This document shows positions 19,783-43,641 of a stretch of DNA of 64,000 nucleotides, in pieces. The stretch lies in assembly GCA_004431415.1 (NCBI GenBank), contig QPMI01000013.1:121158-185157 (forward strand). Reading direction: 5' to 3'. The notes under the pieces were generated by a model that had not been told where the DNA came from, did no database searches, and saw only the letters and a list, made by a program, of their open reading frames with translations. This DNA is from Cyanophora paradoxa CCMP329 (lineage: Eukaryota; Plantae; Glaucophyta). The translations under genes were made by a program, and so were the position numbers. Position 1 is the first letter of the stretch, and each line of letters opens with the position of its first letter.

Positions 19783-19787
19783 CAGGG

Positions 19788-25257: not shown

Positions 25258-25308
25258 TGTCAACTCGGAACCCTGGGGATTTCGTGGGTCGGCGGTACCC
25301 CCCCGGGA
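25258..25308 (+). repeat. Left terminal inverted repeat (imperfect)
   Basis: TGTC-N8-ACCCTG-N4-TTTCG-N-GGGT..GGTACCCCCCC.GGGA. It matches the reverse complement of 43415-43465 at 38 of 52 aligned columns (manual count), with identical spacing over the first 32 nt. Confidence 0.8.
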
Positions 25309-25373
25309 CCGGCGTGCGGGGGGGTCGAGCCAGGCGTGGCCCGCCACGGGTACGCCGACCCGCCACCGCCACG

Positions 25374-25467
25374 CGTGACCCCCGTGACTCCCGTGACACC
25401 CGTGACGCGGGCGGTGGTCGGACCGGCGGCGAACCGGCGAGTCCGGAATGACGTCACGGTGACGTCA
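25374..25467. promoter_or_regulatory. Subterminal CGTGAC array and paired TGACGTCA (CRE-like) palindromes
   Basis: CGTGAC at 25374, 25383, 25392 and 25401 (9-bp period). TGACGTCA at 25449 and 25460. Confidence 0.45.
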
Positions 25468-25498
25468 GCGCTCGGAACCGAGTACTTACCATGAATCA

Positions 25499-25732
25499 CT
25501 AATCATAATGACTCGGCTGACTCAATCCCATGGCGACTACTGCTCCCATCAGTGCAACGGCGATTAGCTGGCGGTACAGGACCAGCAGTGCCAGGATGAG
25601 CACGAGCACCGGCGCCGACGCCTGCCAGCCGTAGGCGCTGTGGACTCGCCAGAACAGCGAAAATGCACCGAAGCCCGCGAGCCCGAGCCCCACGAGCAGG
25701 CCTGAGCCCAGCCACAGTGCCTGATTCGCCAT
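25499..25732 (-). CDS. Small multi-pass membrane protein (paralog of 28319-28669)
   Basis: Intronless and hydrophobic. Motif FWRVHSAYGWQASAP matches FRGLHGRFGWKGSAP in the paralog. Confidence 0.7.
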   Translation of the reverse strand: MANQALWLGSGLLVGLGLAGFGAFSLFWRVHSAYGWQASAPVLVLILALLVLYRQLIAVALMGAVVAMGLSQPSHYD

Positions 25733-25766
25733 TGATACCAAATGAAAGGATAATGTTCCGATTCAG

Positions 25767-26026
25767 CCGTCGCCAACCCGACGCGACCCGATGCGCGCCG
25801 ACCGTCGAGCGTGCTGTATAAACCGACTCTAGGCGCCGTCACCGTGGTGGTGACGGTAAACCTTGCGGAGTTGAATCAAGGGTTCGAGTCCCCGCGGGCC
25901 CGTCGCCGACCCGACGCGCGCCGAACGTCGAGCGCGCCACCAGAGGCGAGCATAGGCGCCGTCACTCTGACGGTGACGGTAAACCCTGCGGAGTTGAATC
26001 AAGGGTTCGAATCTCGGCGGGTCCCG
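25767..26026 (+). repeat. Two tandem copies of the ~130-bp structured intergenic repeat
   Basis: Units 25767-25899 and 25900-26026. Each has CCGTCGCC(A/G)ACCCGAC, GTCGAGCG, a CCGTCAC..GTGACGG hairpin, TAAACC.TGCGGAGTTGAATC and GGGTTCGA.TC. Confidence 0.85.
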
Positions 26027-26094
26027 TTTGGCCGATGGCGCGTCGGGCGCTGGTGCGGTCCTTTCGCGCCCGCCAGTACGGTCGCGGCGCTCTG

Positions 26095-26688
26095 ATGCAT
26101 GATTGGCAGCGCGAGCAGTTCAACGGACGGGCGGCGGCCGGCGGCGCGCTCGGCGAGGATTTGAACCGCGAGGGCCACGTGGTGGTGCTGGCGAACGCCG
26201 CCGTGCACGTGGCGCACTGCGTGAACGACGCGCTGCACGAGATGCGCGCGGGCGCCGGCGACCCGTTTGTGTACAACCCGCTGCTCGTCGCGGCGGTTGC
26301 CGGCGTCCAATCGGCGCTGGACGGCGTCGCGAGCTTCTGCGACCGGCACTTCCCGAGCGGCGAGCGGCGGGAGGACAAGCTCTACTTCGACAGCTACCGG
26401 TTCGCGCACCAGTGGCTCGAGCCGGTCGAGCGCGCGCGCCTGGCGCTCCGGCGGCCCGACTTCTACAACGGCGGCGACTTTGCCGCCGTCGCCAACCGCG
26501 CCAAGCACACGCTCCCGTGGTTCGGCGCCGCGTCAGCGGACGCGGACGGCGCGCTCGACGTCCGCGACGCCGCCGGCCGCCGCCTGGTCGCCGGCACAGT
26601 CGCGCCCGCCTATCGCCTGCTCTGCCAGTGCGTGGCCGCGCTCGCCGTCCAGTGCGGCGTGCGCCTCCGCGAGTGGCCCGCGGTCTGA
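26095..26688 (+). CDS. Hypothetical helical protein, HEPN-like (paralog of 27556-28173)
   Basis: Intronless ORF (alternative ATG 26035). Motifs SALDGVASFC and ANRAKH. Aligns by eye along its length with 27556-28173. Confidence 0.7.
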   Translation: MHDWQREQFNGRAAAGGALGEDLNREGHVVVLANAAVHVAHCVNDALHEMRAGAGDPFVYNPLLVAAVAGVQSALDGVASFCDRHFPSGERREDKLYFDSYRFAHQWLEPVERARLALRRPDFYNGGDFAAVANRAKHTLPWFGAASADADGALDVRDAAGRRLVAGTVAPAYRLLCQCVAALAVQCGVRLREWPAV

Positions 26689-26746
26689 CGATTGTCCGCG
26701 CTGCCGTGGCCCGTGATGAATGCGAATATATATACGACAGTACTAC

Positions 26747-27469
26747 CTAACCAGTCAAACCAGACTCCTCGGCTATCGAGAGGCTCAGCGATGCGTATCG
26801 GACGGTGAGGGCCAGGCGGTTTGCGACGAAGTACGAGGCTCCGAGCACGCAGGCCTTGCTGAAGTGCGAGTGCGACTCGTACACCGTGGCCGGTCGGCCG
26901 TTGACCAGGAGCGTGGCGCCGAGCGCCGAGACAGACGAGAGGCCGAGCGCCTCGATGACGTCGCCCGAGACGTAGGTGTGCGGCGAGCCCGTGTCGATGA
27001 TGAATGGGGCGAACACGGCGCGCCCGCGCCTCGCGGCGACCGGCAGGACTGCGAGCGGCCGGCTGTTGGGGCCGGCGATCCGGCCCTCGACGGGGAACGC
27101 GGGGCGGCGGTCCGGCGGGGCTTCTGCGAGGTAAGCGACGCCGAACAGCTGAGCGATTGACTCCAGGTCGCTGCGGTCACGGATGTCCGTGAGCAGGACG
27201 TCGAACTGCTTCGGCGTCACGAGCGCCGGGTGCGCGTCCGCGAGCCCGGCGGCCTGCATGCTTCTGAATAGGAGCGCGAGTGGCGCGAGCGCTGAGTCGA
27301 TCTCAGAGAGCTCCGGCGACTTGTCGGGCACGTTGACCCGGATCAACCGAAGCTCCGAAAGAACGTCCGCGATGTTGGCCGCATCGCCGCGCAGGGCTGC
27401 GACTGGTCGGAGCCCGGCCGGCAGCGCGCCGAGCGCCGCTGCAGCCGCCGCCGCCTCGGCGCTTTCCAT
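26747..27469 (-). CDS. Retropepsin-like (clan AA) aspartic protease
   Basis: Catalytic FIIDTGS motif and downstream VLGASYF (the LG motif of retropepsins). Intronless, 240 aa. Confidence 0.8.
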   Translation of the reverse strand: MESAEAAAAAAALGALPAGLRPVAALRGDAANIADVLSELRLIRVNVPDKSPELSEIDSALAPLALLFRSMQAAGLADAHPALVTPKQFDVLLTDIRDRSDLESIAQLFGVAYLAEAPPDRRPAFPVEGRIAGPNSRPLAVLPVAARRGRAVFAPFIIDTGSPHTYVSGDVIEALGLSSVSALGATLLVNGRPATVYESHSHFSKACVLGASYFVANRLALTVRYASLSLSIAEESGLTG

Positions 27470-27555
27470 TGAAGGCCCTAGTTCGAGCCCCCGCGGGCCC
27501 GATTGGCGCCGTGTTCGCTGGCCCGGCGCTTCTTTCGCACGTCGACGGTGAGCCC

Positions 27556-28173
27556 ATGGCGGACGACGCGTTCCCGCTGCTGTCTGACGGTTCGCGCTTC
27601 TGGCAGGTGATGCGCGGCGCGCGGGAACCGGCCGCCAGCGGCCTCAACGCCGCCGGCCACCTGGGCACTGTGCGGGCCGCGGTGTGCGTGGTCGGCGCGC
27701 TCGTCTGCCAGGCCCAGGAGCTGTGCGCCGGGGCCGGGGCGCCGGCGGCGGACGAGCTGAACGGGCTGGCGTTCACCGCCACCGTGAGCCTGGCGGCGCT
27801 GCTGGACAGCGTCGCGCACTACTGCGAGCGCGCGCAGCCGCGCGGCCCGTACCGCCGCGACGGCAACATATACTTCGCAAGCTACCCGTTCGCGCAGAGC
27901 GATTTCCGATTCGTCGCGGAGGCCCGCGCGCGGCTCGGCGAGCTGGCGTTCGCCGGCAAGCCGTTCGCCACGCTCGTCAACGAGCTCAAGCACCACTGCC
28001 CGCACGTCGGCCAGCCGTCGCTCTTCGGCCGCACGGGCCACTACGACCTGCACGACGGCGCGGGCCGCGGTTACGTGTACGACGTCCTCGTGCCGGCGTA
28101 TCGGATCGCGCGCGACGTCGTCGCGCGCCTCGCGGCCCTGTTGCCGCCGCCGCCCGGCTTCCCCCACCCGTGA
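27556..28173 (+). CDS. Hypothetical helical protein, HEPN-like (paralog of 26095-26688)
   Basis: Motifs ALLDSVAHYC, IYFASYPF, VNELKH, DGAGR and PAYR are shared with the paralog. Confidence 0.7.
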   Translation: MADDAFPLLSDGSRFWQVMRGAREPAASGLNAAGHLGTVRAAVCVVGALVCQAQELCAGAGAPAADELNGLAFTATVSLAALLDSVAHYCERAQPRGPYRRDGNIYFASYPFAQSDFRFVAEARARLGELAFAGKPFATLVNELKHHCPHVGQPSLFGRTGHYDLHDGAGRGYVYDVLVPAYRIARDVVARLAALLPPPPGFPHP

Positions 28174-28230
28174 TGAACGCGAACATACGTGCCACCCAGC
28201 ACGCTCGCGGGTCGGGTGCCGGTCCTGGGT

Positions 28231-28320
28231 GTCGAGCGTGCTGTATAAACCGACTATAGGCGCCGTCACCATGACGGTGACGGTAAACCCTGCGGAGTTG
28301 AATCGAGGGTTCGGATCCCT
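28231..28320 (+). repeat. Third copy of the structured repeat, between convergent genes
   Basis: 81/90 identical to 25804-25893 (manual count). Its T-arm-like end overlaps the stop codon at 28319. Confidence 0.85.
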
Positions 28321-28669
28321 ACGAAACCTGAATGAGACCTCGCATGACGTCCGGGTCCATGTAGCCGGCGGTGAGCATGAGCGCGAGCCCTGACGTCATT
28401 GTAAGCTTTGCCGGGCCGACGCGCCCGACCATGAACGTGAGGAGCAGCATCACCACGCCGAGCGGCGCGCTGCCCTTCCAGCCGAAGCGGCCGTGGAGGC
28501 CGCGGAAGGCCTTGTACAGGCCGTACGGCGCCGTCGTGGCCAGCAGCAGCACCAGCGCGTAGAGCGTCAGCTTGAGCTCGAGCTCGCCGCCGTCATCCTC
28601 CGCGGCCTGCTGCTGCGGCTGCGTCGTCGAGGCCTGCGCGCCCGGCGGTCGTGACTCGGCGTTACCCAT
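28319..28669 (-). CDS. Small membrane protein with an N-myristoylation-like start (MGNAES)
   Basis: MGxxxS start and three hydrophobic segments. Paralog of 25499-25732. Confidence 0.7.
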   Translation of the reverse strand: MGNAESRPPGAQASTTQPQQQAAEDDGGELELKLTLYALVLLLATTAPYGLYKAFRGLHGRFGWKGSAPLGVVMLLLTFMVGRVGPAKLTMTSGLALMLTAGYMDPDVMRGLIQVS

Positions 28670-29070
28670 GGTCACTCGTTGCGCTCGAAAAAAACGCGCG
28701 CGGCCCGTCGCCAACCCCACGCGCGCCGACCGCCGAGCGTGCTATGGGATGAATCCGATCCGTCACGGGTCGAAGGCCGGCGGACGCGTCGCCGTCACCG
28801 ACGGTGACGCGTCACCGTGACGCGCGATCATGCGGGAAGCCGGAAAATGCGAGCGCGAAATGCCGCGCGCGCGTTTTCCTGCGGTCGCGTTTCCCGGCGC
28901 TGCGAACTGGGCCCCCGAATGACCTCCCGAGCGCCGGCCTCCGAACCTCATTCCACTCGCCCAGCGAGATTCGCAAAGCCTCAGCGCTAGCTAGCAACTC
29001 ACGGTGCGCGCGGTTTTCCCTTGGCTGCAAAACTTGGCTGACTTTTCCCTTTGCGCGCAGATCTCTCAAG

Positions 29071-32000
29071 ATGAACTCTGCCAAGTCCGACCTCAAGGGC
29101 AAGGGCGCTCTCACGGTAAGGGGATTTTGCCTTGGTGAAAAGCGCATGCCTTGGCTGATTTTGCCCGTTTTGCCGCAGCCCTCTGCGTACTTCACGATGC
29201 TTCAGGAGTTTGTCGTCGAGCCCGATTTCCCCTTCGACGAGCGCCGCTGTTTCCGCCTCAACCACGAGGGCCTTGTGCTCGCCGTGCCGGTGCGCGGGGC
29301 TTGGCTTGCCGATTGAATCGCCTCTAACTCCCGTCCGTCTTTGGCGCAGGCGGACAAGGCCACGTACGTCATGCAGCTTGTCGACAAGGACAAGCAGTCC
29401 CGCGTCCCCGAGGTCATCGACATGACCGATATCGAGGACGAGCCCGCCGGCCAGGGCCCCCCGCCCCCCGCCCCGCGCGCCAAGGGTCCGTGACTCTGCC
29501 GAAATTTCTCGCATGACGTCACGCTGACCTTTTTCGCGCCACAGCGGCCGTCCCCTTGAACTTCCCCAGCCTGGCTGCACCGGCGGCCGCGGCGGCCGCG
29601 GCGCCTGTGGCCGGCCCTTCGAGCCAGCCGGCCGCGGGCCCTTCGAGCAAGCCGGCCTCGGCGGCCTCTACGTCGGACGACGACGACGACAACGTGCCGC
29701 TGAACCGCTGTGAGCCCCGCCCCTTGCCCGCGTGCCTGCCCACGCTCACCGCCTTGCCGGCAGTGAAGCGCGGCCGGGACTCTGAGACTGCCGCCGCCAA
29801 GCCCGCCGCTGCCAAGCCCGCCGCCGCCAAGCCCGCCGCCGCCAAGCCCGCCGCCGCCAAGCCCGCCGGCGGTCTCGCTGCCAAGCTCGCCGCCAAGGCT
29901 GCCAAGTTCGCTGCCAAGTTCGCTGCCGAGCCCGCGGCCAAGCCCGCCGCCGCCAAGCCCGCGAGCCCTAGTGCGTAACCCTGTTTTTCGTCTGTTTGAA
30001 TAGCCCATTGACTCCCGTTGTGCGCAGAGCCGGACGACCCCACGTTCCAGCTCATCCCCTCGGCTCTGATTCCGTCGAGGCCGATCAGCCCGCCGGCCCC
30101 GGCCCCGGCTGCCGCCGCCCCGGCCCCGGCCCCGGCCGACGCCCCGGCCCCGGCCCCGGCCGACGCCCCGGCCGACGCCCCGGCTGCCGCTGCCAGCGAC
30201 GACGAGGACGTTGTCGGTCGCCAGATTCGGGAGGCCACTCAGAAGCCCGGCGGCAAGGACTTCCTCGACAAGGTCGCCAGCGACGCGTGGGAGAACGAGT
30301 CTGTGCGTGCCGAGTACGGCAAGCGCTACCTTGTGTGCGCATCGGAGCTTCGCATGGCCATCATACCCACGAGCCAGCCTGTGTCTCCCAACGCGCCGAA
30401 GAACTACGTGACTCGCGAGTGCAAGGCCCGCATTGCCATCTGCAAGCGCACCGCAGAGTACGACTACGACTCTGGCGAGGTCACGGAGATCCGCGCCAGG
30501 CGCGGGATGGGCGAGTCGAAGATGATTAATGACAGCGAGAGCTCGTACAAGGTGAAGCTGGGCGGCCAGGACGTGCTCCTCACGTTCACTGAGATCGAAG
30601 CCATCAACCGCGAGCTCGTCCACTGGCCCGTCACTCTCGACAAGGACGGCAACTGCTGCATCAAGGGCAAGGCGCGCGACGCCGCCATGGAGCGCTACCT
30701 GGCCGCGAAGGCGCGCCTCAACATGCGGAAGACTGCCGCCCTTATGGCCGAGGTGAACCTATTTCTATTCAATCCGGCACCTCTAGATCTGCGCTGACTT
30801 GGCCGCCGCAGACCGGCGAGGCCGGCGGCAAGGTCTTGAACAGCAAGTTCGGCACGACCGTCCAGCCCAACCGCGAGCTCGGTGGCACTACGAACCCCTC
30901 CTGTTCAGCTGCGGCTCGAAGGCTCGGCTGCAGGCTGCCAGCTTGACGGTGCGCCGCGCGACTGAATCGGTTCAATTTCATTCAATTGGCTCACTTTCCC
31001 GCAGATCGCCAAGGCGTACGTCGACCCCAAGATGCTGCGGGCCCGCGCGATCAAGGCGTTCGACGACACGTTCTTGGACGTCATTTTCCGGCTCTACTCG
31101 AAGCAGGAGGTGGCACAGATGGACGCGGAAGGAATCGTGAAGAGCGTCATCGCCGATATCAAGGAGGACTCAATCAAGTTCCTCGTCGAGGAGGGCATCG
31201 TGCCCGAGAAAATCGTTCTCGTCAAGACCCGCATCCACCGCGCCTTTGTGAGCCGCCGGCCGCCGCACGCGGCGTACATGGGCGTCTGCCGCCTTCTCGG
31301 CGCGCACACCGGCGCCGCTGGCAGCAGCAGCAGCCCCGCCGGCGCCCCGGCCCGCCCCGCGGGCCTGGCGACCCCGCGGCGCCCGGCGCCGCCGCGCGCG
31401 GCGCCCGCGGCGCCCGTGTCCGAGCCCGAGGCGATGGACGTCGACTCGGAGCCGGCGGCGGACCCCGAGCCGGCGGCCGAGTCGGACCACGCGACCGAGA
31501 CCGAGGGCCCCAAGCGCAAGCGCGCGAAGACCTCTGCCGAGGAGCTGACGCCCGAGGCCAAGGCCGAGAAGCGGCGCGAGGCGAACCGCAAGGGCGCTGA
31601 GACCAAGGCCAAGAACGAGGAGGCGTGGGCCCGCGCCGTCCAGAAGGGCTACAAGTTCAACGCCAAGGAACTCGAGGTGCGCGGCTGAACTCAATCGCGC
31701 TCAATCGCACGCCTGACTCCGCGGCGCGCAGAAGGACACCCTGCCGAGCCGCGCGCGGCACGTCGACGACTTCCGCAAGCTCGTCGCCGAGAAGCGCGCC
31801 GAGTTCCTGGCCGTCGCGCGCCCGCTCCGGAACTTCGAGAAGGCCATCTCTAACGCCCGCGCCGTGATTGAGAAGCGCCTCGCGGCTGCCGATTGCAAGC
31901 CCAAGGAGAAGTCGGCGCTCCTGAAGAAGCTCGAGGCCGGCGGGGCGTGCGACAAGGCCGAGGAGGCCCTGCGTGACATCACCGAGGAGATGGTCGCGGG

Positions 32001-32337
32001 GTGGCGCCAGACGATCGACGATCTCGAGTCGGCCTTCTTCACGCGCTACAACATCCCCAACTTCGCGCCCGTGGCGGCCGACTCTGCTGCGGTCGCTGCC
32101 GACTTCAAGAAGATCGTGGAGGCCTCGCAGCGCTACAAGCGGCACAACCCCGGCTTCGGCCCCGCCCCGCCGAGCGACGACGACGGCTTCTTCACCGACG
32201 CCGACGCCGTTGACGGCGACGCCGACGCCGACACCTTGGCCAACGCCGCCAGCGAGGCCGGCGACGCGGCCGGGGACGTGGCAGAGGCGCTGCTCTCGAT
32301 GGCCGCCGAGGCGGCCGCCGGGGACTTCGACGAGTAG
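29071..32337 (+). CDS. Large spliced orphan protein with histone H1-like (AAAKP)n repeats, a basic NLS and an acidic tail
   Basis: GT-AG introns at about 29116-29178, 29290-29349, 29971-30028, 30753-30811, 30949-31004 and 31677-31731. Strong GC3 codon bias. PKRKRAK motif. One -1 frameshift in exon 30812-30948 (137 nt between phase-0 introns). Confidence 0.65.
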
Positions 32338-32668
32338 GCGGCCTCTAGCTAGGAGTTGTGCAGTGTAAATAACTCAGTCAGTTTGGCTTATATTCGTGGC
32401 TTTGTTTGATCGCAAATACTTATATATTCAATTCACACTCGCGACTCTGCCTTGGCTGCCTCTAGCACTACGCGCGACTCTGCTGCCTTGGCTGCCTCTA
32501 GCGTCGTCCAAATACTGTGAAGAAGGCACGAGAGCCTGTTTACTTCTGCGATCTGGCGGTCCTCGGCGCAGTCTTCCAAGTCGAGCGCCAGCACGGCGAG
32601 GTCCCACGCGGCGCCGCTAAGGGACTCGAGCGCCTCGGCCCGCGGCGACTCGGGCGCCCCGCTCGCGC

Positions 32669-33502
32669 TCATGCCTCGGCCCTCGCTAGACGAGCGCGAA
32701 AACCTTGGCGCCGCGCGCTCCGCCCGCGGCCGCCGATCGCGACGGGCGGCTCAGGCGTGCGGGCACGGGCTCGCCGCGAAGAGGAGGCCGTGGGCGGCGG
32801 CGGGAAGGGCGGCGGCGGGCGGACCGGGAGCCCGTGGGACGAGGCCGCCGCGACGGCGAGCGCGAGCGCCGCCTGGCGGTGCTGGCCGAGCGCGGCGTCG
32901 TAGTGCGCCGCGAGCCGCCGCTGGCTGCCGTGGCACGCGTCGCAGAGCAGGTGCCGCTCGCACTGGAACATCCAGCAGGGTGCCCCGGCCGCGGGCGCCT
33001 CGTGGCAGGACGTGCACGCCTCGCCGGGCTCGGCGGCGCCGCCGGCCGCGCAGCGGCGGAAGCCCGAGGGCGCCGCGGGAGAGGGCGCCTTCGACGGGGG
33101 CGGGCAGCGCCGGAGGCGCGCGTGCAGCTGCGCGATCTCGCCGTTCAGGTTCGCCACCACGGCCCGCAGCTCCGCGACGCGCCCCTCGAGGTCCGCGCGG
33201 GCGGACGCGCCCGCGGCGACCTGCGCGGCGAGCTTGTCCGCACGCCTGCGCTCAATGCGCGCACGCTCCTCGGCGGCCTTGGCCGCGAGGGCGCACGCGC
33301 GGCCGGCCGCCTCCTCGGACCGGAGCACCACCTCCAGGGCGGCCGCCCTGGCCTCCGCGTCGGTTGCGCGACGGGTCGCCAGCTCCACCAGGTCGACCCC
33401 GAGCGCTCGGGTGCGCGACTCGGCGCCCTCCGACATGTCAAAATGCAGCCGCGCCAAATCGCGCTCGCATTCCTCAAGGCCGATCGCGACGCAGCTCTTC
33501 AT
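32669..33502 (-). CDS. Coiled-coil/leucine-zipper protein with a partial RING-like zinc finger
   Basis: Heptad LEGRVAE-LRAVVAN-LNGEIAQ-L and CTSC...CERHLLCDAC. The 3' structure is uncertain and may continue into 32433-32672. Confidence 0.55.
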   Translation of the reverse strand: MKSCVAIGLEECERDLARLHFDMSEGAESRTRALGVDLVELATRRATDAEARAAALEVVLRSEEAAGRACALAAKAAEERARIERRRADKLAAQVAAGASARADLEGRVAELRAVVANLNGEIAQLHARLRRCPPPSKAPSPAAPSGFRRCAAGGAAEPGEACTSCHEAPAAGAPCWMFQCERHLLCDACHGSQRRLAAHYDAALGQHRQAALALAVAAASSHGLPVRPPPPFPPPPTASSSRRARARTPEPPVAIGGRGRSARRQGFRARLARAEA

Positions 33503-33699
33503 GATAATGTGTGTGTGCGGGAGAGGCCGCCCCGGTCGAGGGCCGGCGCGGCAGATGGCCGGTCCGCTGGCAGATGGCCGGTTCGCCGGTGACGGTGACG
33601 GGCGGCCATGTGATCATGGCCCGGGACCATGCGTTCGATTTTTCGTGCAAGTTGCAAGAACTTGCAACGATAGGGGTGTTGCGGGGTAAGTGCGGCTAA

Positions 33700-33880
33700 T
33701 TGCGACACTCGGGCTCGTAATTGTATTTATTAATTTTACATCACACTGAAGCGACTCGGATATCAGTAATTACGTACCCCAAAAATATACATAATTTGAG
33801 TTTTAACTTAATTATGTGCATTAATTGCTTGCAAATATTATTTTGACGGTCACCTGACGGCATAATATTGCAATTATCAC
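33700..33880. promoter_or_regulatory. AT-rich island between divergent genes
   Basis: Strongly AT-rich stretch in otherwise very GC-rich DNA. Hairpins just upstream at 33604-33621 and 33651-33668. Confidence 0.45.
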
Positions 33881-33957
33881 TCTCGAGCTCCGACTCGGAG
33901 ACTCTCGGGCCGGCGGGCTCCTAGTATCCAACAGGCATTCAGGCGACTCGAAAGTAC

Positions 33958-36900
33958 ATGTTAGTGGACCGGGCGCGTGCCGGCGGCGGCGACGAATCGT
34001 TGGAGTCTAGCTGCATATGCATAGTCCACGACCATGGATGTGAGCCGTTGGCGCCGTTGCGGATCCGGCGCAATCTTTGCGGGCCCGTGCCTGCGAATCG
34101 GCCGCCGAGTGTAGGTTTTTTTGTCGAACTGGATGAATCACCCCTGGCTCATGTGCGGGGGTACCTCCGACCTACAATCACGCCGGCGGTGCTTCCAGGA
34201 CCTTCGCTCTGGCAATCACTCCAGTTCACGTCTCGCGATTGCGGCGCGTAGCGTAGGCGCAGCGGCGCGCGGCGAAGGCGGCGGGCGGGAGGCAGCGATG
34301 ATGGCGACGAACCAGCTGGTGTGCATGCGCACGCGCGCGCCGATCGTCGCGCGCGCCGCGCGCGCCGAAACCCACGCCCGCGCGCGCAGGGCTGGCCCGC
34401 GCGCGCGAGCCCGATGTGGCAGGACTTCAGCCGCGAGCCGCGGCTGTTGCAGCACGGCCCGTCCGCTTTCCTGCCTCCCATGCGGCCCGCACCGGCGCGC
34501 GTGCCTCGGCCGGCGACGCCCATCCAGGAGCCGTGCTCGCCGGCGGCTTCAATGATCGAGGTGCGCTCCGGGTTCGGGCCCGCCCTCGCTTAGGACTTGG
34601 TCGCGGATCATGGCGCCCGCGCGCCCGCGTGCCGCCGCCAGCCCGTTATCGTGCGCGTACCGGCGGAGCCACTGCCGGAACTCCGGCGCCATAGCCATCT
34701 CTAGCACGCGGGGCAGCGCTGTTGTGCGCGTGTCGCCGCACACGGGGCACGATGTGAGCGCGCAGCACTCGGGGAAGTAGATAATCTCGCGCATGTGCGC
34801 CACCGAGCTGACGCCGCCGTTTTGCATGCAGCCCGGCTTTTTCCAGGAGGTGTTCCTTGCAGAAACGGACCTCAAGGATTTATACGCCGTCTCCGACGCA
34901 TGCCAATACGGGCGCCTTTTGGCCGACGGTGCATTCGACGCATACATCGGCGATGCCGCCAAGCACTGCGCCGCACACAAGCACGTCTGTGGCGACGTCG
35001 GCTGCATGTCCGTTGTGGTCGAGCAGGACAGGATCGTCGCCACGCTGGCGTTCCCCGGCAGGTGCGCCCCGCCCGCGCGCCCCGCCCGCCCCGCCTGACG
35101 CCCGTCGCGCATTTCCAGCACCGGGTCCGTCCAAATCGCGGTTCCGGCCATCCGGCCCGCGGCGGGGGAGGATTTCATCGAGCCGGCGAGATACGCGAAG
35201 GTCTTCGCCGAGGCAGTCTGGCCCGTCGTCGCGGAGGCGCTCGGGCACGGACTGGAGCGGAATCCGGCGGTGGCGCGCAGTGCGCATATGCACGTCGTCA
35301 ACATATGCTGTCACGTTATGGCCGCCGTAATGCGGTGCACGCAAGGTGTCCCGTGCCGCCCGCCATCGCCCGTGTCCGCCGGTGACGCTGTGCTCGCAGG
35401 CGGAAAAGGCCTGGACGTCCCGAACGTCGACGTTGCGCTCCTGCAGTTCGCCCGTGCCGTTGCGGGCGCGAAGCGCGAGACTGGCCTCCTTTACCTCGAC
35501 GGCACCCCCCCCAGCGCCGACAGCCCCTGGGACATCTGGGCGGCCGAGATTCGGACCATCCCTCGCTACACGCCGCTCTCCCCTCCCCCCGTCGTTCACT
35601 CCGCCACCATCGACGCCCCAAGGGGCAGTTTGAGTGCGAAGCATTTTCGTCTCGCCCTGTTCTTCTCGGTGCGCGATTGCGTCCGCCGGCCCGTGCCCGC
35701 CCTCAAAGCCGACCCGCGGCCAGGTCCTGAGTTCGGTGCTGAACGACAACGTTAACGTCGTCGAGTCGCCGGGGAAGGTCATGGAGGCGGCCAGGGATCG
35801 CGTCCCCCGCTACGCCAGTGGCACGTCGGGCCGTCGCAACCTCGGCTCGGAGGCGACGAACGGCGTCAACCCCGGCACCCTCAACAGGGTCGCGAAGGCG
35901 GCCGGCGCGACGGCGGTCGAGATCTTCCGCGCAGAGACGAACGCCAAGGTCGGCGACAACCTCTACGACAGAATCTTCGCAGCCGTGGAAAGGACCGGGC
36001 ACTGCGCCCGGCGGCTGGCCGAGCAGCCCGGGCGGCGACAGGGGGTCGTGCTCGCCATCGAGACGGCCCTCAGCCACCACGGCGGTCCTCGCCTCTTCAT
36101 TCTCCGCTGTGATCCGTCTGTCGCCGCGCACGGCGTGCTGGACTTCTTCTGGACGGCCGTGTCAATCGAGCGCGACGAGGAGTTGCTGGTGGTGAAGAAC
36201 TTCAAGGATATCAACGGGGTCGTTTCCTTCGTGATGGAGAAGCACTCGCCGAAGCAGAAAACACGCCTTGGCGCATGGATTCTCACGTGCGGGGATCACG
36301 GCACGGCGACCGAGCCCCGCGAGTTCATGGCCGCGCTCGGCGACGGCATCGGCTACGTCCACGGGGGAGGCGGCGAGGACGGCAAGGACGACGGCGCCCC
36401 CCCGGACCCCGGCAGGGCCCTCCCGTCTGTCGATAAGAACAAGTCCTATCGCCTGTGGCTGGCCTGCGTGGCGAGCATCCAGGCCCGCCACCGCCACATG
36501 AGCGACCCCATGCGAATGGCGCTCTTCATCGACAAGGCGGATCGCGCGATCAAGGGCCAGATCGCCAAGTACGTCGACAAGCGGTTCCTCGGCTCGCGCG
36601 ACGTGGTCGACTACCGCATGCCGCCGCACCCCGACGATAAGGGGCGGCAGCCCGTCGACGTTCTCCTGCCGAAGATGTTCGAGCTCGCGCTGGCACGGTA
36701 CCGCGGAAAGCCGCTCTCCCACATGGCGTGGTCGATCTACGAGGCCTTCAATGTCTACAACGGAGTCTCCCCCGTGGTCCTCGACTGCGACGCGGAGTTC
36801 CGCGAGATGGCCAAGGGCGAGACATTCAAGAAGACGGCCAAGACCGCGCTCGGAGCCGTGCTCCGGGAGGCCAAGAAGCTCTCCCTGATCGACACGAATA

Positions 36901-37076
36901 TAGACTTTGAGAAGGAGCGGGAGACAAGGGACAAGTGCAATCTCCGGGGAAAGGAGAAGAAGCGCAAGCGCGCTGCCGAGGAGGCCCAGCGCACCCTCCG
37001 CGCCCGGGCACCGTCGCCCACCGACTCGTCGGTCGCCGGCACCGACGACACGGGCAGCGAGTGGAGCGACGAGTGA
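33958..37076 (+). CDS. Large spliced orphan protein with a C-terminal basic NLS
   Basis: Introns 35062-35118 and 35669-35723 join coding-biased ORFs. Long terminal exon ends KEKKRKR...SEWSDE, stop 37076. The 5' structure is unclear. Confidence 0.55.
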
Positions 37077-37163
37077 GATTTTTGCTGCAGCCTTCTGGCT
37101 GCCCATGATGTATGCATAGGGCGGCAGCAGCGGATGACGTTTGTTACAGTTTTCTACGCAGGC

Positions 37164-37380
37164 TAGGTTTTGAAAGTTTCACCCTCGGTAGCCCATGATG
37201 ATTTCATATATGGGCTTCATGTTCGAGATTTTTTTAGAGTCTGTAGGTTTTGAAAGTTGCATTGGAAGCCTGAAATGATTGATCGGGCTTCATGTTAGAG
37301 TACGTAGGCTTTGAAAGTTGCATCCTCGGTAGCCTGTGATGATTCATTGGGCTTCATGTTCGAGTCTAGAGTCTTATAGG
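37164..37380. repeat. Three degenerate AT-rich tandem repeats, each with a hairpin
   Basis: TAGGYTTTGAAAGTTKCA at 37164, 37244 and 37305, each followed by AGCC...GGGCTTCATGTT. Confidence 0.75.
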
Positions 37381-37512
37381 TTCGCATAGAGTTGTGAATT
37401 GACCACCTGACTTTGCTCGCACGTGCGCCGGCCCTTGCTCCCGGCCCCACCTGCCGCCCGGCTTCTGGGAATTCAGGGGGTGATTTTTCTCTGTTTCCCA
37501 GTAGGCCACCCC

Positions 37513-38689
37513 ATGGACGGCCGGAAGGCGGCGATCGCGCTTGCCGTCGCGGCGGGCGCGGCCGCGGCCATCTACGTGGCGGTGAAGTCGGCGACCCGAG
37601 CAGCACCGGAGGGATCCGAGCTTGCGCCAGGCCCCCGCCCGACGGCCGCCACGAGGGCGGCGTCGGCGGGGGGCGAGCCGATCGACGTGGAGAAGGAGCT
37701 CGAAGCGTTCGAACGCGGCCTCGTCGCGGCGCGGGTGGCGCCCTCGCCCAGGCAGGCGCTGGTGGCGCGGCAGGCGGAGGTGGCAGCGCTGCCGCCCGTG
37801 AACTGGGACGCCCTGACGACGGAACTGAACCGGATGCGGGCGTGGCGCTGGCAGGTGCTGAAGGACACCGCGATGATCGCACGCGAAGAAGCGAGACAGA
37901 AGAACGTCCAGCGCGCCCGCGAGGGGGTGCTGTACAGCGAGGCGTACGCCGAGTCGGCGCAGTTCGCCCTGGACTGGGCGCAGGAGAGGTGGCGGGAGAC
38001 GCTGCAGATGCAGGCGGACACGGAGAGGCGCCTCGCGCTCACGAAGGCCATGGTGGAGCAGGTCACGAAGGACACGTCGACGCTCCAGGTCGCGTCGCGG
38101 GCGAGCCGGGGCGCGGGGTCGCGCGTCGCGGTCGCCGGCGAGGTGTGGGGGCTGCCGCCGAACCCCCCACGGGGCTGCGCGGCGAGGTCGTCTCGCGGGC
38201 TCCCGGTCGAAGAAGGCGGAGGACTTCGTCGCCCCGACCGTGCGGCTCACCTGGAGCGAACCGGCGTCGGACGGCACGCCGTCGCTGACCCAGGCGTTCA
38301 GGGTCTACATCAACGGGCTCCCCGACGTCGCCAAGGACGGGACGCCCCGCCTCGTGGAGCCTGGGGAGGGCGGGTCCATCGAGGGGATGTACCAGTGGAC
38401 GGGACCCGCGCCCGTCAGCGGGTTCCAGGACGTGCCGGGGCGGAACTCTTTCTCGGTCTCCGCGCTCCGCGTGTACTTCAGGGAGCCGACGGCGGAGGAG
38501 AAAAAGGGGGACCCCAAGCTGGAGGAGGTGCCGGTCTTCATCGAGGGTCCCGTGAGCGCCTCGATCATCGTCGAAGTGCCCGAGCCGCCCTATGTCGAGA
38601 AGAAACCCGCCGCGAAGAAAACCGGCGATTTGAAGAAGGTGGACGGCGCCGCAGCCTCAGCGGCGACGAAGGCGGCGAAGGCGCTGTGA
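37513..38689 (+). CDS. Membrane-anchored protein: N-terminal TM, coiled coil, C-terminal FN3-like domain (two -1 frameshifts)
   Basis: AAIALAVAAGAAAAIYVAV anchor. PPNPPTGL...VRLTWSEP...FRVY...FSVSA...EGPVS is restored by adding one base in the C-run at about 38163 and one in the G-run at about 38197. Confidence 0.6.
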
Positions 38690-39508
38690 TCGGCGGCGGG
38701 CCCGGGAGCGTGTACGGGGGCGGCGGGCCCGGGAGCGGCGCCGACTGTAACGGCGGCTGGATGCGTTGGGGGCAGGGGCGTCATCCATCCATTCCGAATC
38801 CGGCGGGGGCATGGGCGTCCCGGGTTGCGATCCCGCCGCGGGATCGGGGGGCACCGGGGCAACGGGGCGCAGGTCCACTACTCGGGTTGGCGCCTGTGCA
38901 AGCGAATCCTGTAGGATCATCTTCTCGCGCACGAAGCTGAGCCCAAGCGCCATGGGATGTCTACTGCTCAGCGCCACCCTGGTGCTGGGTCCGACGCGAC
39001 CGGGCCATTTCAAAAGGGCATACCTTGCAGCGGCGTCATACGCGATGTATGCAATGACGTTGCACAGAGCAAGAGTGTCTGGAGTCTCGAAAGCCTCGAA
39101 GCTCAGGTCGAAGATTCGAAGCATTAGAAGAAATCCATATTCGTCCTCCTCTAGGACCAGTTGCAGGCCCACATGCGGAAGAGGGGCCCCCAACAGATCA
39201 AGGGCGCGGCCGCCCGCGGCGGGGGCCTGAGGGATCATGTTAACCTGAATTCCATCGACACTGTCCATCTCATCAAGCCGAAACCTATAGTTGATTTCTC
39301 GCACGTCGCTGGGGTTCTGAGGGTGCAGTATCTGGATTGGAATAATTGACCTCGATTTTATTCCCTCCCCAAACGAACGCCATGGCAGCGTCGGGAGCCT
39401 GGTCTGGTTGTTTATCCGGTCTCGTAGTGTCAATTCGGCAAATCTGCGTCCTTCCCCCCAGTGCCACTTTGACGGGGGCGGGATATCGCGATGGGGCGCC
39501 CGTTTCAT
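38657..39508 (-). CDS. Orphan protein with an Arg/Ser-rich C-terminus
   Basis: Lower-GC intronless ORF from MKRAPHRD, ending SRRYSRRRSRARRPRTRSRARRRS. Confidence 0.5.
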   Translation of the reverse strand: MKRAPHRDIPPPSKWHWGEGRRFAELTLRDRINNQTRLPTLPWRSFGEGIKSRSIIPIQILHPQNPSDVREINYRFRLDEMDSVDGIQVNMIPQAPAAGGRALDLLGAPLPHVGLQLVLEEDEYGFLLMLRIFDLSFEAFETPDTLALCNVIAYIAYDAAARYALLKWPGRVGPSTRVALSSRHPMALGLSFVREKMILQDSLAQAPTRVVDLRPVAPVPPDPAAGSQPGTPMPPPDSEWMDDAPAPNASSRRYSRRRSRARRPRTRSRARRRSQRLRRLRRR

Positions 39509-39534
39509 CTTTACCCAGCTTCTCTGATAATTTC

Positions 39535-39944
39535 TCACACGGGCGCGAACACGAACGCATCGGGCTCCTCGGCGGTGGGGAGCCACAGCCCCAGGTCGAG
39601 CACCACGCCGCTCGCGAGTCGGCGGAAGACGCGGAGGGCGCGGCCGTCCGCGATGTTCCTGCGCATGGCGACGTGCTCGGCGGCGCCGTCGTCCCTGTAC
39701 TTGGCGTACTTGAGCGCCTCCTCGGTCTCCTGGTTGGCGTACGCGGAGGAGGAGCTCGAGTAGACGCTGGCGATGTAGCCGTCCTCGCCGACGTAGAACC
39801 CCGTAGCGTCGGGTGCAGGCGCCGGAACTCGTCGGTGCTGAGGAGGGTCGGCTCGGGGCTGCGGGTCCGCCGGGGCCACCTTCGCGGCAGCTCGCCGAAC
39901 ACCGTCCACGGGGTGGGTTCGGTCTGAACGCCGGCCTCGGGCAT
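39535..39944 (-). CDS. SRA/YDG-like domain protein (one -1 frameshift)
   Basis: With one G added at 39799-39802 it reads RRLHPTLRGFYVGEDGYIASVY..AYANQETEEALKY..HVAMRRNIADGRALRVFRR..VLDLGLW, which follows the order of SRA motifs. Confidence 0.5.
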
Positions 39945-39993
39945 TGCTGCTTTACCGGTGCGCGGGGAAAATAGTGCGGCGCGCGAATCCGCG

Positions 39994-40329
39994 TCACGGC
40001 GCGAAGGGGTCGCGCGAGAACGGGCAGTGGGCCGTGGGGCCCAGGACGCTGCAGGGGATGCGCGCCGGCTTCAAGGCCTCGGACGCCACGATCCGAAACG
40101 CCGGCGCGCTCGAGCCGTCCGAGCCCGATGCGAGGCTCGCGACGGTGTCCAAGGCCACGAACGCCGGCGAGGTCGCCACGTCCTCGGGGGCGGGGGCCGG
40201 TTCGCTCGGGTTGGCGACGGCGGCAACGGGTCGCGCGGTCGGTTCGGCGGGGGGTGGGGTGCGCGACGCCACCCAGGCCGCCACGGCGGCGAGGGCGGCG
40301 AGAACCAGGAGGCCGCGCGCGGAGTCCAT
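39994..40329 (-). CDS. Small protein with an N-terminal signal/TM anchor
   Basis: MDSARGLLVLAALAAVAAWV followed by a Pro/Ala linker, 111 aa. Confidence 0.55.
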   Translation of the reverse strand: MDSARGLLVLAALAAVAAWVASRTPPPAEPTARPVAAVANPSEPAPAPEDVATSPAFVALDTVASLASGSDGSSAPAFRIVASEALKPARIPCSVLGPTAHCPFSRDPFAP

Positions 40330-40356
40330 GGTTCCTGTGAATGGGCCAAAAAATAG

Positions 40357-41307
40357 ATGCAACCCAGTAAGACGCGGGGAGCGATGCCTGTCCTCGACCC
40401 CGCCAGGATCGCCCTGCTGGCGAAGAAGGTGGAGCAGGCGAACACGCAGTACAGCAAGAAGGCCGCCGAGGAGACGCTGATGAGGTACATCGAGAACCGC
40501 AGGGCGCTCACCCCGCCGCGGTACCGCTACCGGTACGGCGGCGGCGGCGGGCGCGTGTACGACCAGTACGAGACGATCGACGGGTTCATGAAGCTCGTGG
40601 AGAAGCGGATGGGCACCGGGGCGGCGGGTGCCCAGGGCACGGCAGAGCTCCAGGATCTCACGAGGCTTCCGGCGGCGGCGTCGGTGGAGGACCGCCTGAA
40701 GATGCTCGAAGGGGTGCGGAAGCACAAGATCGAGCTCAAGGAGGCGGGGGCCACCCCGGAGGAGGTGGGGATACTCGACTACATGTTCCGCGTGCAGAAC
40801 CCCGGGGCGGTCCTGCCCCCCAACGCGCCGAAGATGCCGGTCCCCGGGACCCTGGGCACGCTGGCCGGCGCCATGACGATGCTCCTGGGCCTGGGAGGGG
40901 GGGGTCAGGCGGCGGTGGCGGGCGCGGCCGCGGTCGGCGACGCGGTGGGCCAGATCATGGGCTCGCCGCAGTTCTGGAGGTCCGTGAACCAGCTCGTGGG
41001 CTCGAATAAGCTCATGCCCGAGGACCTCCACCGGCTGCTCGAGTCGCCCGGCTTCCTCCGCGCCATGGAAACGGTCCGGGATGCCCGGCGCGAGGAGACC
41101 GAGGGCAAGCGCATCAGCTCCGCGATCGTGCAGCAGGCGCTGTCGATGATGACCACCGAGCCGGCGTGGGCCCGCAACCGCCGCTGGGGCCGGCGCTCGG
41201 GGCGCCGCGGGCCCGGGGGGACGCGCCGGTCGCGCCGGTCGCGCCGGCGGTCCGGCCGGTCCCGCGGCCCCTCCGTGATCACGCCGCGACCCTACATGAC
41301 CGTCTAG
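40357..41307 (+). CDS. Putative virion core protein with an Arg-rich tail
   Basis: Intronless 316 aa. Contains RYRYRYGGGGG and the C-terminus RNRRWGRRSGRRGPGGTRRSRRSRRRSGRSR. Adjacent to the MCP. Confidence 0.6.
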   Translation: MQPSKTRGAMPVLDPARIALLAKKVEQANTQYSKKAAEETLMRYIENRRALTPPRYRYRYGGGGGRVYDQYETIDGFMKLVEKRMGTGAAGAQGTAELQDLTRLPAAASVEDRLKMLEGVRKHKIELKEAGATPEEVGILDYMFRVQNPGAVLPPNAPKMPVPGTLGTLAGAMTMLLGLGGGGQAAVAGAAAVGDAVGQIMGSPQFWRSVNQLVGSNKLMPEDLHRLLESPGFLRAMETVRDARREETEGKRISSAIVQQALSMMTTEPAWARNRRWGRRSGRRGPGGTRRSRRSRRRSGRSRGPSVITPRPYMTV

Positions 41308-41414
41308 CGCCGCCGAAGTTTTGTTTAGGTACTTTGAGGACCCCGCACTTCCGCCGCCGCGCAAGAACCCGCTCTCGTCCGCGAAGAGGCCGGGGTTGAT
41401 TAGCCACGCAAACA

Positions 41415-42626
41415 CTACTGGTACAGGAGGCGGGTACCGCTCGCGTTCTGCCGCATGACGTTGAAGCCGACGGCGTAGACGAGGAGGTCGAGGTCGGCGT
41501 CGGTGCCGGGCGACGCGAAGGTGAAGTTCATGAGGATCTGGTCGACGGTGCCGAGGTTGAGCGAGCCGGTGGGGCGGTGCGTGTCGGCGTCGAGACAGAA
41601 GGGCAGGCAGAAGATGTCGCGGTCGGGGACGCGACCGTGGACCTCGCGGGGGGTCACCACCTTGTAGTAGGTGGGCGGCAGCGGCGGGACGCGCTCGTTG
41701 CCGCGGAGGGTCAGCGAGAGCGTCTTGAACCGCTCGGGGATGGCGTTGTAGAGGGTGGCGGGGTCGGCGTTGTTGTCCGGCGTGGGGTCGTCGTGCTCGT
41801 AGTCGAAGAGGCGGCCGTTGGTGGCGCGCTCGAACTCGCGGAAGACGAAGAGGAGCTCCTTGCAGGGGCCCGTGAGCCTGATCTCGGCCGCGAAGGTCTC
41901 GGAGCCCTTGGGGACGCGGAACTCCTGGGTCTGCCAGGTCTCGACGAGGCGCTCGAAGGGGCGGTTGACCTGGGTCTTCTCGGGCTCGTCGAGGTAGATG
42001 AAGTTGCAGAGGAGGTAGGCGTCGGTGATCTGGCCGCTGAGGACGCGGTCGAGGGCGGGGATGGGCTCCAGGGCGTCGTCCGTCTGCAGCATGACGAGGT
42101 GCTTGAGGGGGCGGAAGGTGACGGCGACCTTGATGTCGGGGCTGCCCATCACGGGGTGCGCCGTCTGCGGCAGGCGCGTCCACGTGGGGAGCGGGACGAT
42201 GAACTTCTGCGTCTCGTTGGAGACGCGGCGGAGGTAGCCGGGCGTCCAGTCCCAGTCGCCGATGAGGGGCGCGAGCGGCTTGTTGATCTCGTCGACGGAG
42301 AGCGCCGACTGGAGGTCGATGTGCTCGGGGCGGATCTCCTGCACGACCGCGCCGCCGATGGAGATCACGACCTTCTCCCACATCGCGAGCCCCAGCTTGT
42401 TCGTCCAGTGCCAGTAGTTCACGCCGTCCGAGGGGGTCTGCACGAGGGGGCCGACCTCGAGGACGAGGTACACGCGGTGGAGGAGGTCGCACTGGCGCGG
42501 GACGGTCGTCCAGGCCGTGCCGCCGTACGCGGCGCCCATGGGGAAGGAGACGCGGACGGGCTGCGAGACGAAGGCGCTGTGGCGCTTGGTGCCGCCCGTC
42601 CAGAACGTGATCTCGGGGTTGAACGA
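41415..42626 (-). CDS. Double jelly-roll major capsid protein, Nucleocytoviricota type, lacking about 20 N-terminal residues
   Basis: In frame upstream of the tracked ORF is NPEITFWTGGTKRHSAF (cf. NPQITFFKxxYRRHTNF). Also DLLHRVYL, WTNKLG..VISIGG, NFIYLDEPE, PCKELLFV, PFCLD..HRPTGSLNLGTVD (cf. HQPSGTCNFSRID) and VYAVGFNVMR. In-frame TGA at 42641-42639. Confidence 0.93.
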   Translation of the reverse strand, partial: SFNPEITFWTGGTKRHSAFVSQPVRVSFPMGAAYGGTAWTTVPRQCDLLHRVYLVLEVGPLVQTPSDGVNYWHWTNKLGLAMWEKVVISIGGAVVQEIRPEHIDLQSALSVDEINKPLAPLIGDWDWTPGYLRRVSNETQKFIVPLPTWTRLPQTAHPVMGSPDIKVAVTFRPLKHLVMLQTDDALEPIPALDRVLSGQITDAYLLCNFIYLDEPEKTQVNRPFERLVETWQTQEFRVPKGSETFAAEIRLTGPCKELLFVFREFERATNGRLFDYEHDDPTPDNNADPATLYNAIPERFKTLSLTLRGNERVPPLPPTYYKVVTPREVHGRVPDRDIFCLPFCLDADTHRPTGSLNLGTVDQILMNFTFASPGTDADLDLLVYAVGFNVMRQNASGTRLLYQ

Positions 42627-42996
42627 GGGTTCGTCTTCTCACACCACTCGTGGTACAGGTCGAGCAGGTCCTCCTTTCGGATATACCACTTCTTGTAAGT
42701 GCGGTCGTCCCGTGTAATCGTGGCATCCAGCTCGACCTTCAAGGCTTGATGCGCCCGGTCTGCATGAAAGAGGCAAAGCAGCCCTCCGGTTGCGCCGCCA
42801 GCCTCCGTGCACGCGTCCCGCGCTCCAGAGCTGCGTCGTAGGCGCAGCGCCTCTTCTTGACCTCGGTCTCCAGGGCCCGCACCTCCGTCTCCAGGGCCCG
42901 CACCTCCGCTTGAGCTTGCTCGGAGCGCTTGATGACTTCCATCATCTCCTCGAAGGTTGTCGCAATCTCGCGCTCAGCGCCCTCGATGTCCGCCAT
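42627..42996 (-). pseudogene. Coiled-coil plus D5-helicase-type C-terminal winged-helix fragment, truncated at the MCP junction
   Basis: MADIEG...(EVRALET)2...CFASFMQ, then after a -1 shift near 42742 IRKEDLLDLYHEWCEKTN. This resembles the LYxxYxxWC helix of primase-helicase C-terminal domains. Confidence 0.4.
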
Positions 42997-43090
42997 CGCG
43001 CCGCCCAGAGTGAGCTCGCCCCCGCTCGCCCCGCCCCTTTAAGGCCGCCCCGAACCGCCCCCGCCCCCGCCCCCAGGGGTGGTTTCGGGC

Positions 43091-43180
43091 CCGTCGCCAA
43101 CCCGACCCGCCACCCCAGACCCGCCCCGACCGCCAACCCGACCGCCACCCCGAAACGCCAACCCGAGCCGCCAACCCGAG
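43091..43180. repeat. Subterminal cluster of CGCCAACCCGA
   Basis: Exact copies at 43095, 43131, 43156 and 43169. The same motif starts the left-arm repeat (25767, 28705). Confidence 0.65.
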
Positions 43181-43414
43181 CCCCGCCCGCCGCGCAACCC
43201 CATTCGTCCGTTTTTCACGCCCCGTCCAGGGCACCCCCACCCCGCTCAATAGCCCGCCAATCGCAACTCAATAGGCATATATTCGGGTATATGTCCATTC
43301 ACAGGGTGTATACATATACGCATACCGCGCGTCCCCGTCACAATCACCCCCCGTCCCCGTGCCTCCCCGCACCCGTACCCCCGCACGCCTCGCCCCCACC
43401 CGCCCCCCGGTCGC

Positions 43415-43465
43415 TCCCAGGGGGGGTACCACCACCCTCGAAAAACGCAGGGTATTAGGACGACA
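43415..43465 (-). repeat. Right terminal inverted repeat (imperfect)
   Basis: Reverse complement reads TGTCGTCCTAATACCCTGCGTTTTTCGAGGGTGGTGGTACCCCCCCTGGGA, matching the left end. Confidence 0.8.
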
Positions 43466-43641
43466 ACCTCTTCAAGTCGCCGACCGGGGTACGTGGTATT
43501 CCACATAGCGTACCCCAGCTGACGAACCCAAACCAGCTGGCTGGCTGAGCAGGCAGTGTTCTGGTTAGGCGGCAGGCACTCGTCGGCTTCCCGAGAAGAT
43601 TTGCACGTACACGCGCACGCCCACGCCGTAGCTAGGCACAG

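Follow-up and report, generated by a model that had tools for sequence, protein, structure and literature searches.

The window analysed here, 64,000 nucleotides of the Cyanophora paradoxa CCMP329 genome (contig QPMI01000013.1, positions 121,158 to 185,157), contains between positions 25258 and 43465 a block of 18,208 bp that carries a major capsid gene of the type known from nucleocytoplasmic large DNA viruses (NCLDV) between two terminal inverted repeats (TIRs). We consider it likely that this block is an integrated, multicopy and internally deleted element, the remnant of a much larger nucleocytovirus-type virus of an estimated ~100 kb, and that its ends were joined to the host DNA by a retroviral-type DDE integrase. 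An initial annotation, made from the sequence alone, had placed the block at exactly these coordinates and this length and had read it as a small integrating virus, possibly of an undescribed family. The block is indeed a real and correctly delimited feature, but probably a deletion remnant rather than a miniature virus.

The main evidence is an internal deletion junction at 42627/42628. The minus-strand gene at the right end of the block follows a protein of 182 residues, P0176, up to residue 113 (position 42629), and then enters the capsid protein P0002 at residue 20 (from position 42626). What is left of the first gene is a frameshifted 5' remnant (42628–42996, minus strand), while the capsid gene (41415–42627, minus strand) has lost its first 19 codons, as the complete N-terminus of P0002 reveals. 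The initial annotation had recognized the capsid gene but missed this truncation. Both genes are whole elsewhere in the genome: P0176 corresponds to gene model g1492 (P001541) and P0002 to g1557 (P001606). The two carry the same contig label (492) with 64 entries between them, and g1492 lies on the 5' side of the capsid gene, as its remnant does in the window. Among 1,124 candidates of 150–2000 aa, only one matched the g1492 gene and its cluster has a single member, hence no second long homolog was found. With an internal junction whose two genes are whole elsewhere and 64 models apart, the reading of 18 kb as the size of the virus is not supported.

That the junction or the entire element is an artefact of long-read assembly appears very improbable to us. 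Short-read contigs do show small insertions and deletions relative to the window at several places, and no listed contig crosses the junction or the whole block. However, in the three runs where a capsid contig is listed it stops precisely at 42627 and leaves no loose end, the pattern expected where two real continuations branch, and 80–92% of sampled words of region 40000–43600 are present in 20 of the 24 listed runs. The capsid model on contig label 249 and the open reading frame (ORF) of the window share their internal start methionine, a weak hint that the junction is shared with that copy; deleted copies may move in trans.

We infer that the 64 models between g1492 and g1557 represent the deleted middle, with the packaging, replication and integration genes that are absent here. 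In the part shared with the window, 13 model numbers cover 16.6 kb; applied to 64 models, this yields a gap of ~82 kb, compared to 248 kb at the genome-wide gene density (genome size and gene count as given in the accessible part of PMC6704402). The parent element would thus measure ~100 kb, a size that derives from gene-model numbering alone.

The capsid gene links the block to the NCLDV. Its ORF (41415–42539, minus strand) scores 72.8 bits against PF04451 (cut-off 34.8) and 41.5 bits against PF16903 (cut-off 24), and it contains all three motifs by which the initial annotation had assigned it to NCLDV-type capsids and not to those of polintons or virophages, an assignment that holds. The closest solved structures are PBCV-1 MCPv1 (E 1e-21) and 8rbs (E 4e-17), and the alignment with Megaviricetes capsids spans the length of the protein, which has the properties of an NCLDV double-jelly-roll major capsid; at E ≤ 0.001, it has 2,214 relatives. 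Outside this genome, the capsid that comes closest among 1.84 billion representatives is P0023, with 34% identity (E 2e-50), followed by others with 29–33%; the ten nearest are found on contigs of 2.5–51 kb. Capsid searches of viral contigs retrieved no close locus, a metagenome search with a narrow capsid alignment retrieved nothing, and broader queries gave only other capsids. P0023 and P0172, the nearest outside capsid, are located on Logan contigs of up to 14.8 kb, and the context of P0023 might show whether a different host carries a related element.

The capsid forms a long branch in all four trees, which are midpoint-rooted, omit rows over 600–620 aa and contain no labelled references for mriyaviruses or other orders. 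In the three broadly locus-sampled trees, it lies outside a strongly supported clade formed by the fetched capsids of giant-virus contigs. Its grouping with P0023 (support 96–99) unites two long branches; if either one is removed, the other stays outside a 13-row clade that includes 10 viral-contig capsids. A separate group of 24 rows in one of these trees, P0024–P0048 and kin, comprises NCLDV-type capsids of ~400 aa. They are distinct from every giant-virus capsid fetched from IMG/VR and JGI, did not turn up among the recovered loci and possibly represent an undersampled lineage.

The position of the capsid outside the sampled giant-virus clade would suit a genuinely small integrating virus of 20–30 kb, like Zoravirus, VC218 or VC40, from which only a few kb were deleted, with g1492 stemming from a separate copy on the same contig. 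As far as the accessible descriptions go, viruses of this kind with TIRs, rve integrases and capsids detectable as NCLDV-type are known, VC40 being 15–20 kb long and without replication genes, and the short ends of the block fit small elements. Yet this scenario demands that the right-hand gene be present in whole a second time, beside g1557, and no such copy was found. Moreover, the multi-exon genes of the block, the lack of any match to an ATPase, minor capsid, HUH endonuclease or methylase within it, and the lengthwise alignment with the PBCV-1 capsid and its Megaviricetes relatives all argue against it, so that we judge it unlikely.

The second line of evidence concerns the termini. The left end begins with TGTCA and the right end, read as reverse complement, with TGTCG. 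Over the first 51 nt, the left (25258–25308, plus strand) and right (43415–43465, minus strand) TIRs are identical in 40 of 53 alignment columns (75%, close to the ~73% of the initial annotation), and a weaker similarity continues to ~110 nt. In a comparison of the left 55-mer with 127,831 positions of the two strands, the right end ranked first with a score of 51.5, compared to 29 for the best unrelated site (background mean −6, standard deviation 7.8). It is this whole-end match that carries weight and not the 11-nt core of the TIR, because the core is common in the genome (15 matches with at most one mismatch versus 1.8 expected; 4 exact). The flanks GCCT (25254–25257) and ACCT (43466–43469), present as annotated, are a candidate 4-bp target duplication identical in three of four positions; as at least this identity arises by chance with a probability of 0.068 at the local composition, before allowing for the nine lengths tried, the duplication is suggestive only. 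Four subterminal CGTGAC hexamers with 9-nt spacing (25374–25406, plus strand) are possible protein-binding sites, judged from their arrangement. No empty-site joint was seen among 15 of the 111 short-read contig joints, no viral genes continue past either end at the window locus (their continuation in homologous loci is what the initial annotation had named as speaking against the element), and the composition of the block is unremarkable, with a G+C fraction of 0.68 versus 0.71.

The TGTNR termini and a TIR length within 40–270 bp are those of Ginger elements, to which the initial annotation had likened the TGT...ACA ends. Since these features and the candidate 4-bp duplication fit Ginger, while TGT...ACA ends with 4-bp duplications are also described for IS481EU (PMC10045372, accessible part), a retroviral-type DDE integrase probably made the insertion. 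The same ends could belong to a large Ginger-type host DNA transposon that captured a block of giant-virus genes, moves by cut-and-paste without forming virions and has left shorter copies as non-autonomous derivatives. Besides the TGTNR ends, the ~50-bp TIRs and the candidate 4-bp duplication, the subterminal hexamer repeats, the introns, the excess of end copies over capsid copies and a retropepsin-like gene are in line with such a transposon. Ginger elements, however, reach only 2.6–7 kb, no transposase was found in the block, and the copies of the capsid share 99% identity and a frame open over 403 codons, amid small ORFs of apparently structural type, either hydrophobic or Arg-rich. A captured gene block is therefore improbable in our view.

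That the element is multicopy is indicated both by proteins and by sequencing depth. Genes of the element recur on five other contig labels (147, 249, 403, 492 and 984) with 97–99.5% protein identity: those of the left 3.4 kb on labels 147, 403, 492 and 984, the capsid on labels 249 and 492. On all four other labels that hold more than one shared gene, the gene order is collinear with the window, so that model numbers can be taken to reflect position. The short-read flank contig stops 28 nt inside the left terminus in four of four runs. Relative to this left flank, contig depth amounts to 6.5–7.5x near the left end in three runs and 3–7x in the fourth, to 2.2–4.7x in the left genes and to about 0.9–2.7x in the right half; in run X1, the respective depths are 59 for the flank, 444 for the end region, 235–279 for the left genes and 114–135 for the right half. 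Contig depth is not a copy number, and runs X8 and X14 have lower ratios; the overall pattern nevertheless matches what the proteins show, as left genes are found on 4–5 contig labels and the capsid on 3. The left terminus is thus not single-copy; single-copy termini are what the initial annotation had listed as refuting its proposal.

The copies are not uniform. Other copies skip 244 nt from 25474 to 25719 (joint in four of four runs), which removes most of a 77-aa hydrophobic ORF (25499–25732, minus strand). At 28315–28377, other copies carry a divergent 3' end of the gene for a 116-aa predicted membrane protein (28319–28669, minus strand; three other labels), which hence occurs in two C-terminal forms; the 120-aa form on labels 403 and 147 is less similar at its C-terminus. 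Small insertions or deletions between the window and the short-read contigs, seen in most or all runs at 29530, 30894, 32787, 37209, 42737 and 42866, are either assembly errors or differences between copies.

Hallmark genes other than the capsid were not detected in the block. A six-frame scan for Walker A, PolB, rve and tyrosine-recombinase motifs gave no match, and by motif scan and Pfam neither an A32 packaging ATPase nor a family B polymerase was found in this copy. The only HUH-like motif match falls in a predicted intron of a 683-aa gene. Scans with Pfam, PHROG and PADLOC added only a retropepsin-like motif below the cut-off, with nothing significant in the latter two. The block does not have the make-up of a Polinton/Maverick, which combines pPolB and an rve integrase with long TIRs and a 6-bp duplication; here, the 6-bp flanks share only two of six positions. 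Of the integrating virus with NCLDV capsid and DDE-type ends that the initial annotation had proposed, the discrete, multicopy, integrated element has thus held up, while an integrase was not found in this copy.

Several of our observations weigh against a large integrated virus as the source of the block. With the capsid branching outside the giant-virus clade as sampled, the case for giant-virus ancestry is one of similarity in Pfam and PDB and not of a placed branch. The capsid gene is also the only recognizably viral one in the block, and 16 other element queries had no match in 235 fetched capsid loci. The models between g1492 and g1557 could be host genes that separate two copies. The multicopy evidence covers the left end and not the right one, the target duplication is scored at a single locus and with one mismatch, and a Gypsy-like DDE integrase was found neither by motif scan nor by Pfam in this copy. 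The differences from the punuivirus given at the end belong to the same side of the balance.

Nonetheless, we regard it as the likely history of the block that a mid-sized genome of nucleocytovirus type integrated repeatedly and subsequently lost its middle, as in the relics of the punuivirus. The linear virus genome would enter the nucleus, where the integrase would cut at the TG...CA ends and join them to breaks staggered by 4 bp in the DNA that separates two divergent host genes. During latency, the host machinery could then express the genes near the ends that bear introns, and the middle would afterwards be lost from most insertions. This copy alone would make no virions, though with both ends intact it might be mobilised in trans. 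A more far-reaching version, which we offer as a doubtful possibility, sees in the parent a nucleocytovirus of ~100 kb that depends on the nucleus, bears introns and integrates through short Ginger-like ends, from an unnamed deep lineage and the first defined for glaucophytes; its deleted derivatives would be multiplied in trans and retain two HEPN RNase genes at higher copy number than the capsid as a superinfection or antiviral defence.

This pair belongs to the left part of the block and consists of a 217-aa protein (26035–26688, plus strand; copies on three other labels) and its 205-aa paralog (27556–28173, plus strand; four other labels), which share 38% identity (E 2e-19) and an N-x-x-K-H motif. 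The 217-aa protein shows an Atlas similarity of 0.91 to a Cthe_2314-like HEPN cluster (rank 16 of 30, 166 shared features, PF18730 on 56% of members). HEPN structures compared to the paralog model (predicted local distance difference test, pLDDT, 53) reached Z 8.0–8.8 at a root-mean-square deviation of 2.8–4.2 and were tied with unrelated helical bundles. The paralog model had no Foldseek match at E ≤ 0.001, neither paralog has a Pfam match, and as queries the pair found no viral locus. An assignment as candidate Cthe_2314-like HEPN RNases, for which an HEPN fold with an R/N-x4-6-H site would be expected, is hence a lead only. Between the paralogs, a 240-aa protein (26747–27469, minus strand; three other labels) carries the retropepsin-like DTG motif (PF13650, E 0.003, below the cut-off).

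An 89-nt repeat with a conserved hairpin of 8–9 bp and a variable loop occurs in three copies on the plus strand (25804–25892, 25927–26015 and 28231–28319), which bracket the gene cassette of highest copy number. It corresponds to no tRNA and no Rfam family, and only one of three copies folds better than shuffled sequences; a GGTTCGA stretch within it resembles a Pol III B-box. A related palindrome is found at ~25448–25468 and 28789–28825. A 25-nt motif, possibly a promoter element, recurs towards each end of the element at positions upstream of genes (25767, 25900, 28705 and 43091), and a contig joint from 43183 to 42628 suggests that in other copies a further one follows the whole right-hand gene.

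The middle of the block contains genes that are predicted to be spliced. Region 29071–32337 (plus strand) is predicted to hold one or more multi-exon genes with Ala/Pro/Lys repeats and eight acceptor-like sites with branch-like motifs; four frames of it gave no Pfam or PHROG family. For a second gene (34793–37076, plus strand), a four-exon model of 683 aa is predicted, to which P0003 maps as four exact segments and of which one other copy exists (P0005). It has no Pfam, PHROG or Atlas match, its fold model is unusable (pLDDT 37), and its 431-aa exon as a query found only its own gene model and nothing in the Atlas. The initial annotation had described the block as filled with compact orphan genes: many indeed have no known family, but several are predicted exons of spliced genes. 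In between, a 277-aa coiled-coil protein with a Cys/His cluster (32669–33502, minus strand) has weak RING-like scores below the cut-off, and AT-rich intergenic repeats spaced by ~60–80 nt follow at 37154–37387 (plus strand).

The right part contains several small ORFs beside the capsid gene which, being hydrophobic or Arg-rich, may encode virion proteins. A product with a hydrophobic N-terminal anchor, a helical part and a C-terminal part in a second frame (37513–38689, plus strand; no family found) is a possible virion protein, and a 111-aa protein with an N-terminal hydrophobic helix (39994–40329, minus strand), 98% identical to g1559 on the long-copy contig, is a possible virion membrane protein. 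A 307-aa protein with an Arg-rich tail (40384–41307, plus strand) might serve as a DNA-condensing core protein. Orphan ORFs at 38657–39508 and, broken, at ~39535–39944 (38657–39944, minus strand) matched no family. A reading of P0176 as a winged-helix protein was dropped, as it had no Pfam support.

At the window locus, the block lies with discrete ends between host genes. Its left neighbour is an intron-rich minus-strand gene that weakly matches an ion-channel family (PF00520, E 0.016), and the ORF on its right, from 43642 on, opens with a stretch resembling a signal peptide, which places the insertion between two divergent host-type genes. Elsewhere in the window, we noted a tandem repeat at 60386–60932 (228-nt unit, ~2.4 copies, 99% identical), 40–45 nt repeats at 47586–47902 together with a long Ala/Pro-rich low-complexity coding stretch at 49264–50726 (~82% G+C), and 2 kb at 18001–20000 with 58–59% G+C compared to ~71% in the surroundings.

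How large DNA viruses integrate is an open question, and the ends of the block point to a specific class of enzyme. As the location of a candidate undeleted copy in a public assembly is known (models g1492–g1568, contig label tig00000492), the integrase question can be tested by reading ~100 kb. Since no capsid relative exceeds 34% identity among the representatives searched, the parent would also add a deep branch with a known host. Our results further call for caution, in that what looks like a "dwarf" NCLDV between TIRs in a genome may have arisen by deletion as a relic. Relics that keep their ends and giant-virus insertions in C. paradoxa are both known; the block differs in its short, imperfect, Ginger-like ends and in a capsid this distant from its nearest relative. 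The parent lineage may qualify as an undescribed family, while small TIR-bounded viruses with NCLDV capsids and retroviral integrases have already been described, as have end-intact relics. Our literature search, with subscription papers, preprint supplements, figures and the genome-paper supplement outside its reach, found no description of the block's family, nor did the accessible parts of bioRxiv 10.64898/2026.10.13.758929 and PMC12220804.

The following comparison with known systems draws on the accessible parts of the sources cited. Polintons, polinton-like viruses (PLVs) and virophages contribute 366 endogenous capsid genes in C. paradoxa, of PLV-like groups in the rows examined (PMC10120064), and are similar to the block in length, integration and host. 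Their capsids, however, are placed only by profile-profile search, whereas the block's capsid passes both NCLDV Pfam cut-offs; in addition, no pPolB, integrase or ATPase was found in the block, and its TIRs are short. Giant endogenous viral elements (GEVEs) have been described in the same host species as clusters of methylated genes of giant-virus origin, in a main text without capsid or inverted repeats (PMC12344493), and may or may not be the same family as the block. Ginger1 and Ginger2 have TGTNR termini, TIRs of 40–270 bp, a 4-bp target duplication and introns within 2.6–7 kb (PMC2836005), but they encode one Gypsy-like integrase and no capsid, while in the block a capsid and no integrase was found. 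Zoravirus VC102, VC218, VC134, VC40 and the Mriyaviruses are 15–45 kb long with an NCLDV-related capsid, some of them with TIRs and rve integrases (bioRxiv 10.64898/2026.06.19.733378). Compared by description, they differ from the block in their A32 ATPase and, for most of them, a minor capsid, an HUH or a Mriya48 gene, no ATPase or HUH having been found here, and in that the 18 kb of the block are probably a deletion product. Nucleus-dependent Megaviricetes with reduced replication genes have also been described (bioRxiv 10.64898/2026.08.29.747986).

The closest parallel is the punuivirus GEVE of Chlamydomonas reinhardtii, which measures 617 kb, has TIRs of 10.8–14.8 kb, ACC-GGT ends and a 6-bp duplication, and of which relics of 48.2 and 5.28 kb retain both ends and the target duplication; target duplications were found there, but no matching integrase (bioRxiv 10.1101/2024.09.03.611062). 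Spliceosomal introns occur in 61 of its 506 genes and are enriched among latency genes (bioRxiv 10.64898/2026.10.09.758095). The block differs from it in its imperfect TIRs of ~50–110 bp, its TGT...ACA ends, a candidate duplication of 4 bp, an estimated parent of ~100 kb and a glaucophyte host. The two have in common an integrant with an NCLDV capsid, inverted ends, a target duplication (a candidate one here), deleted relics that keep their ends, intron-bearing genes and no identified integrase. By analogy, and with no membership in a named family shown, the block would work like a punuivirus-type integrated virus with its relics.

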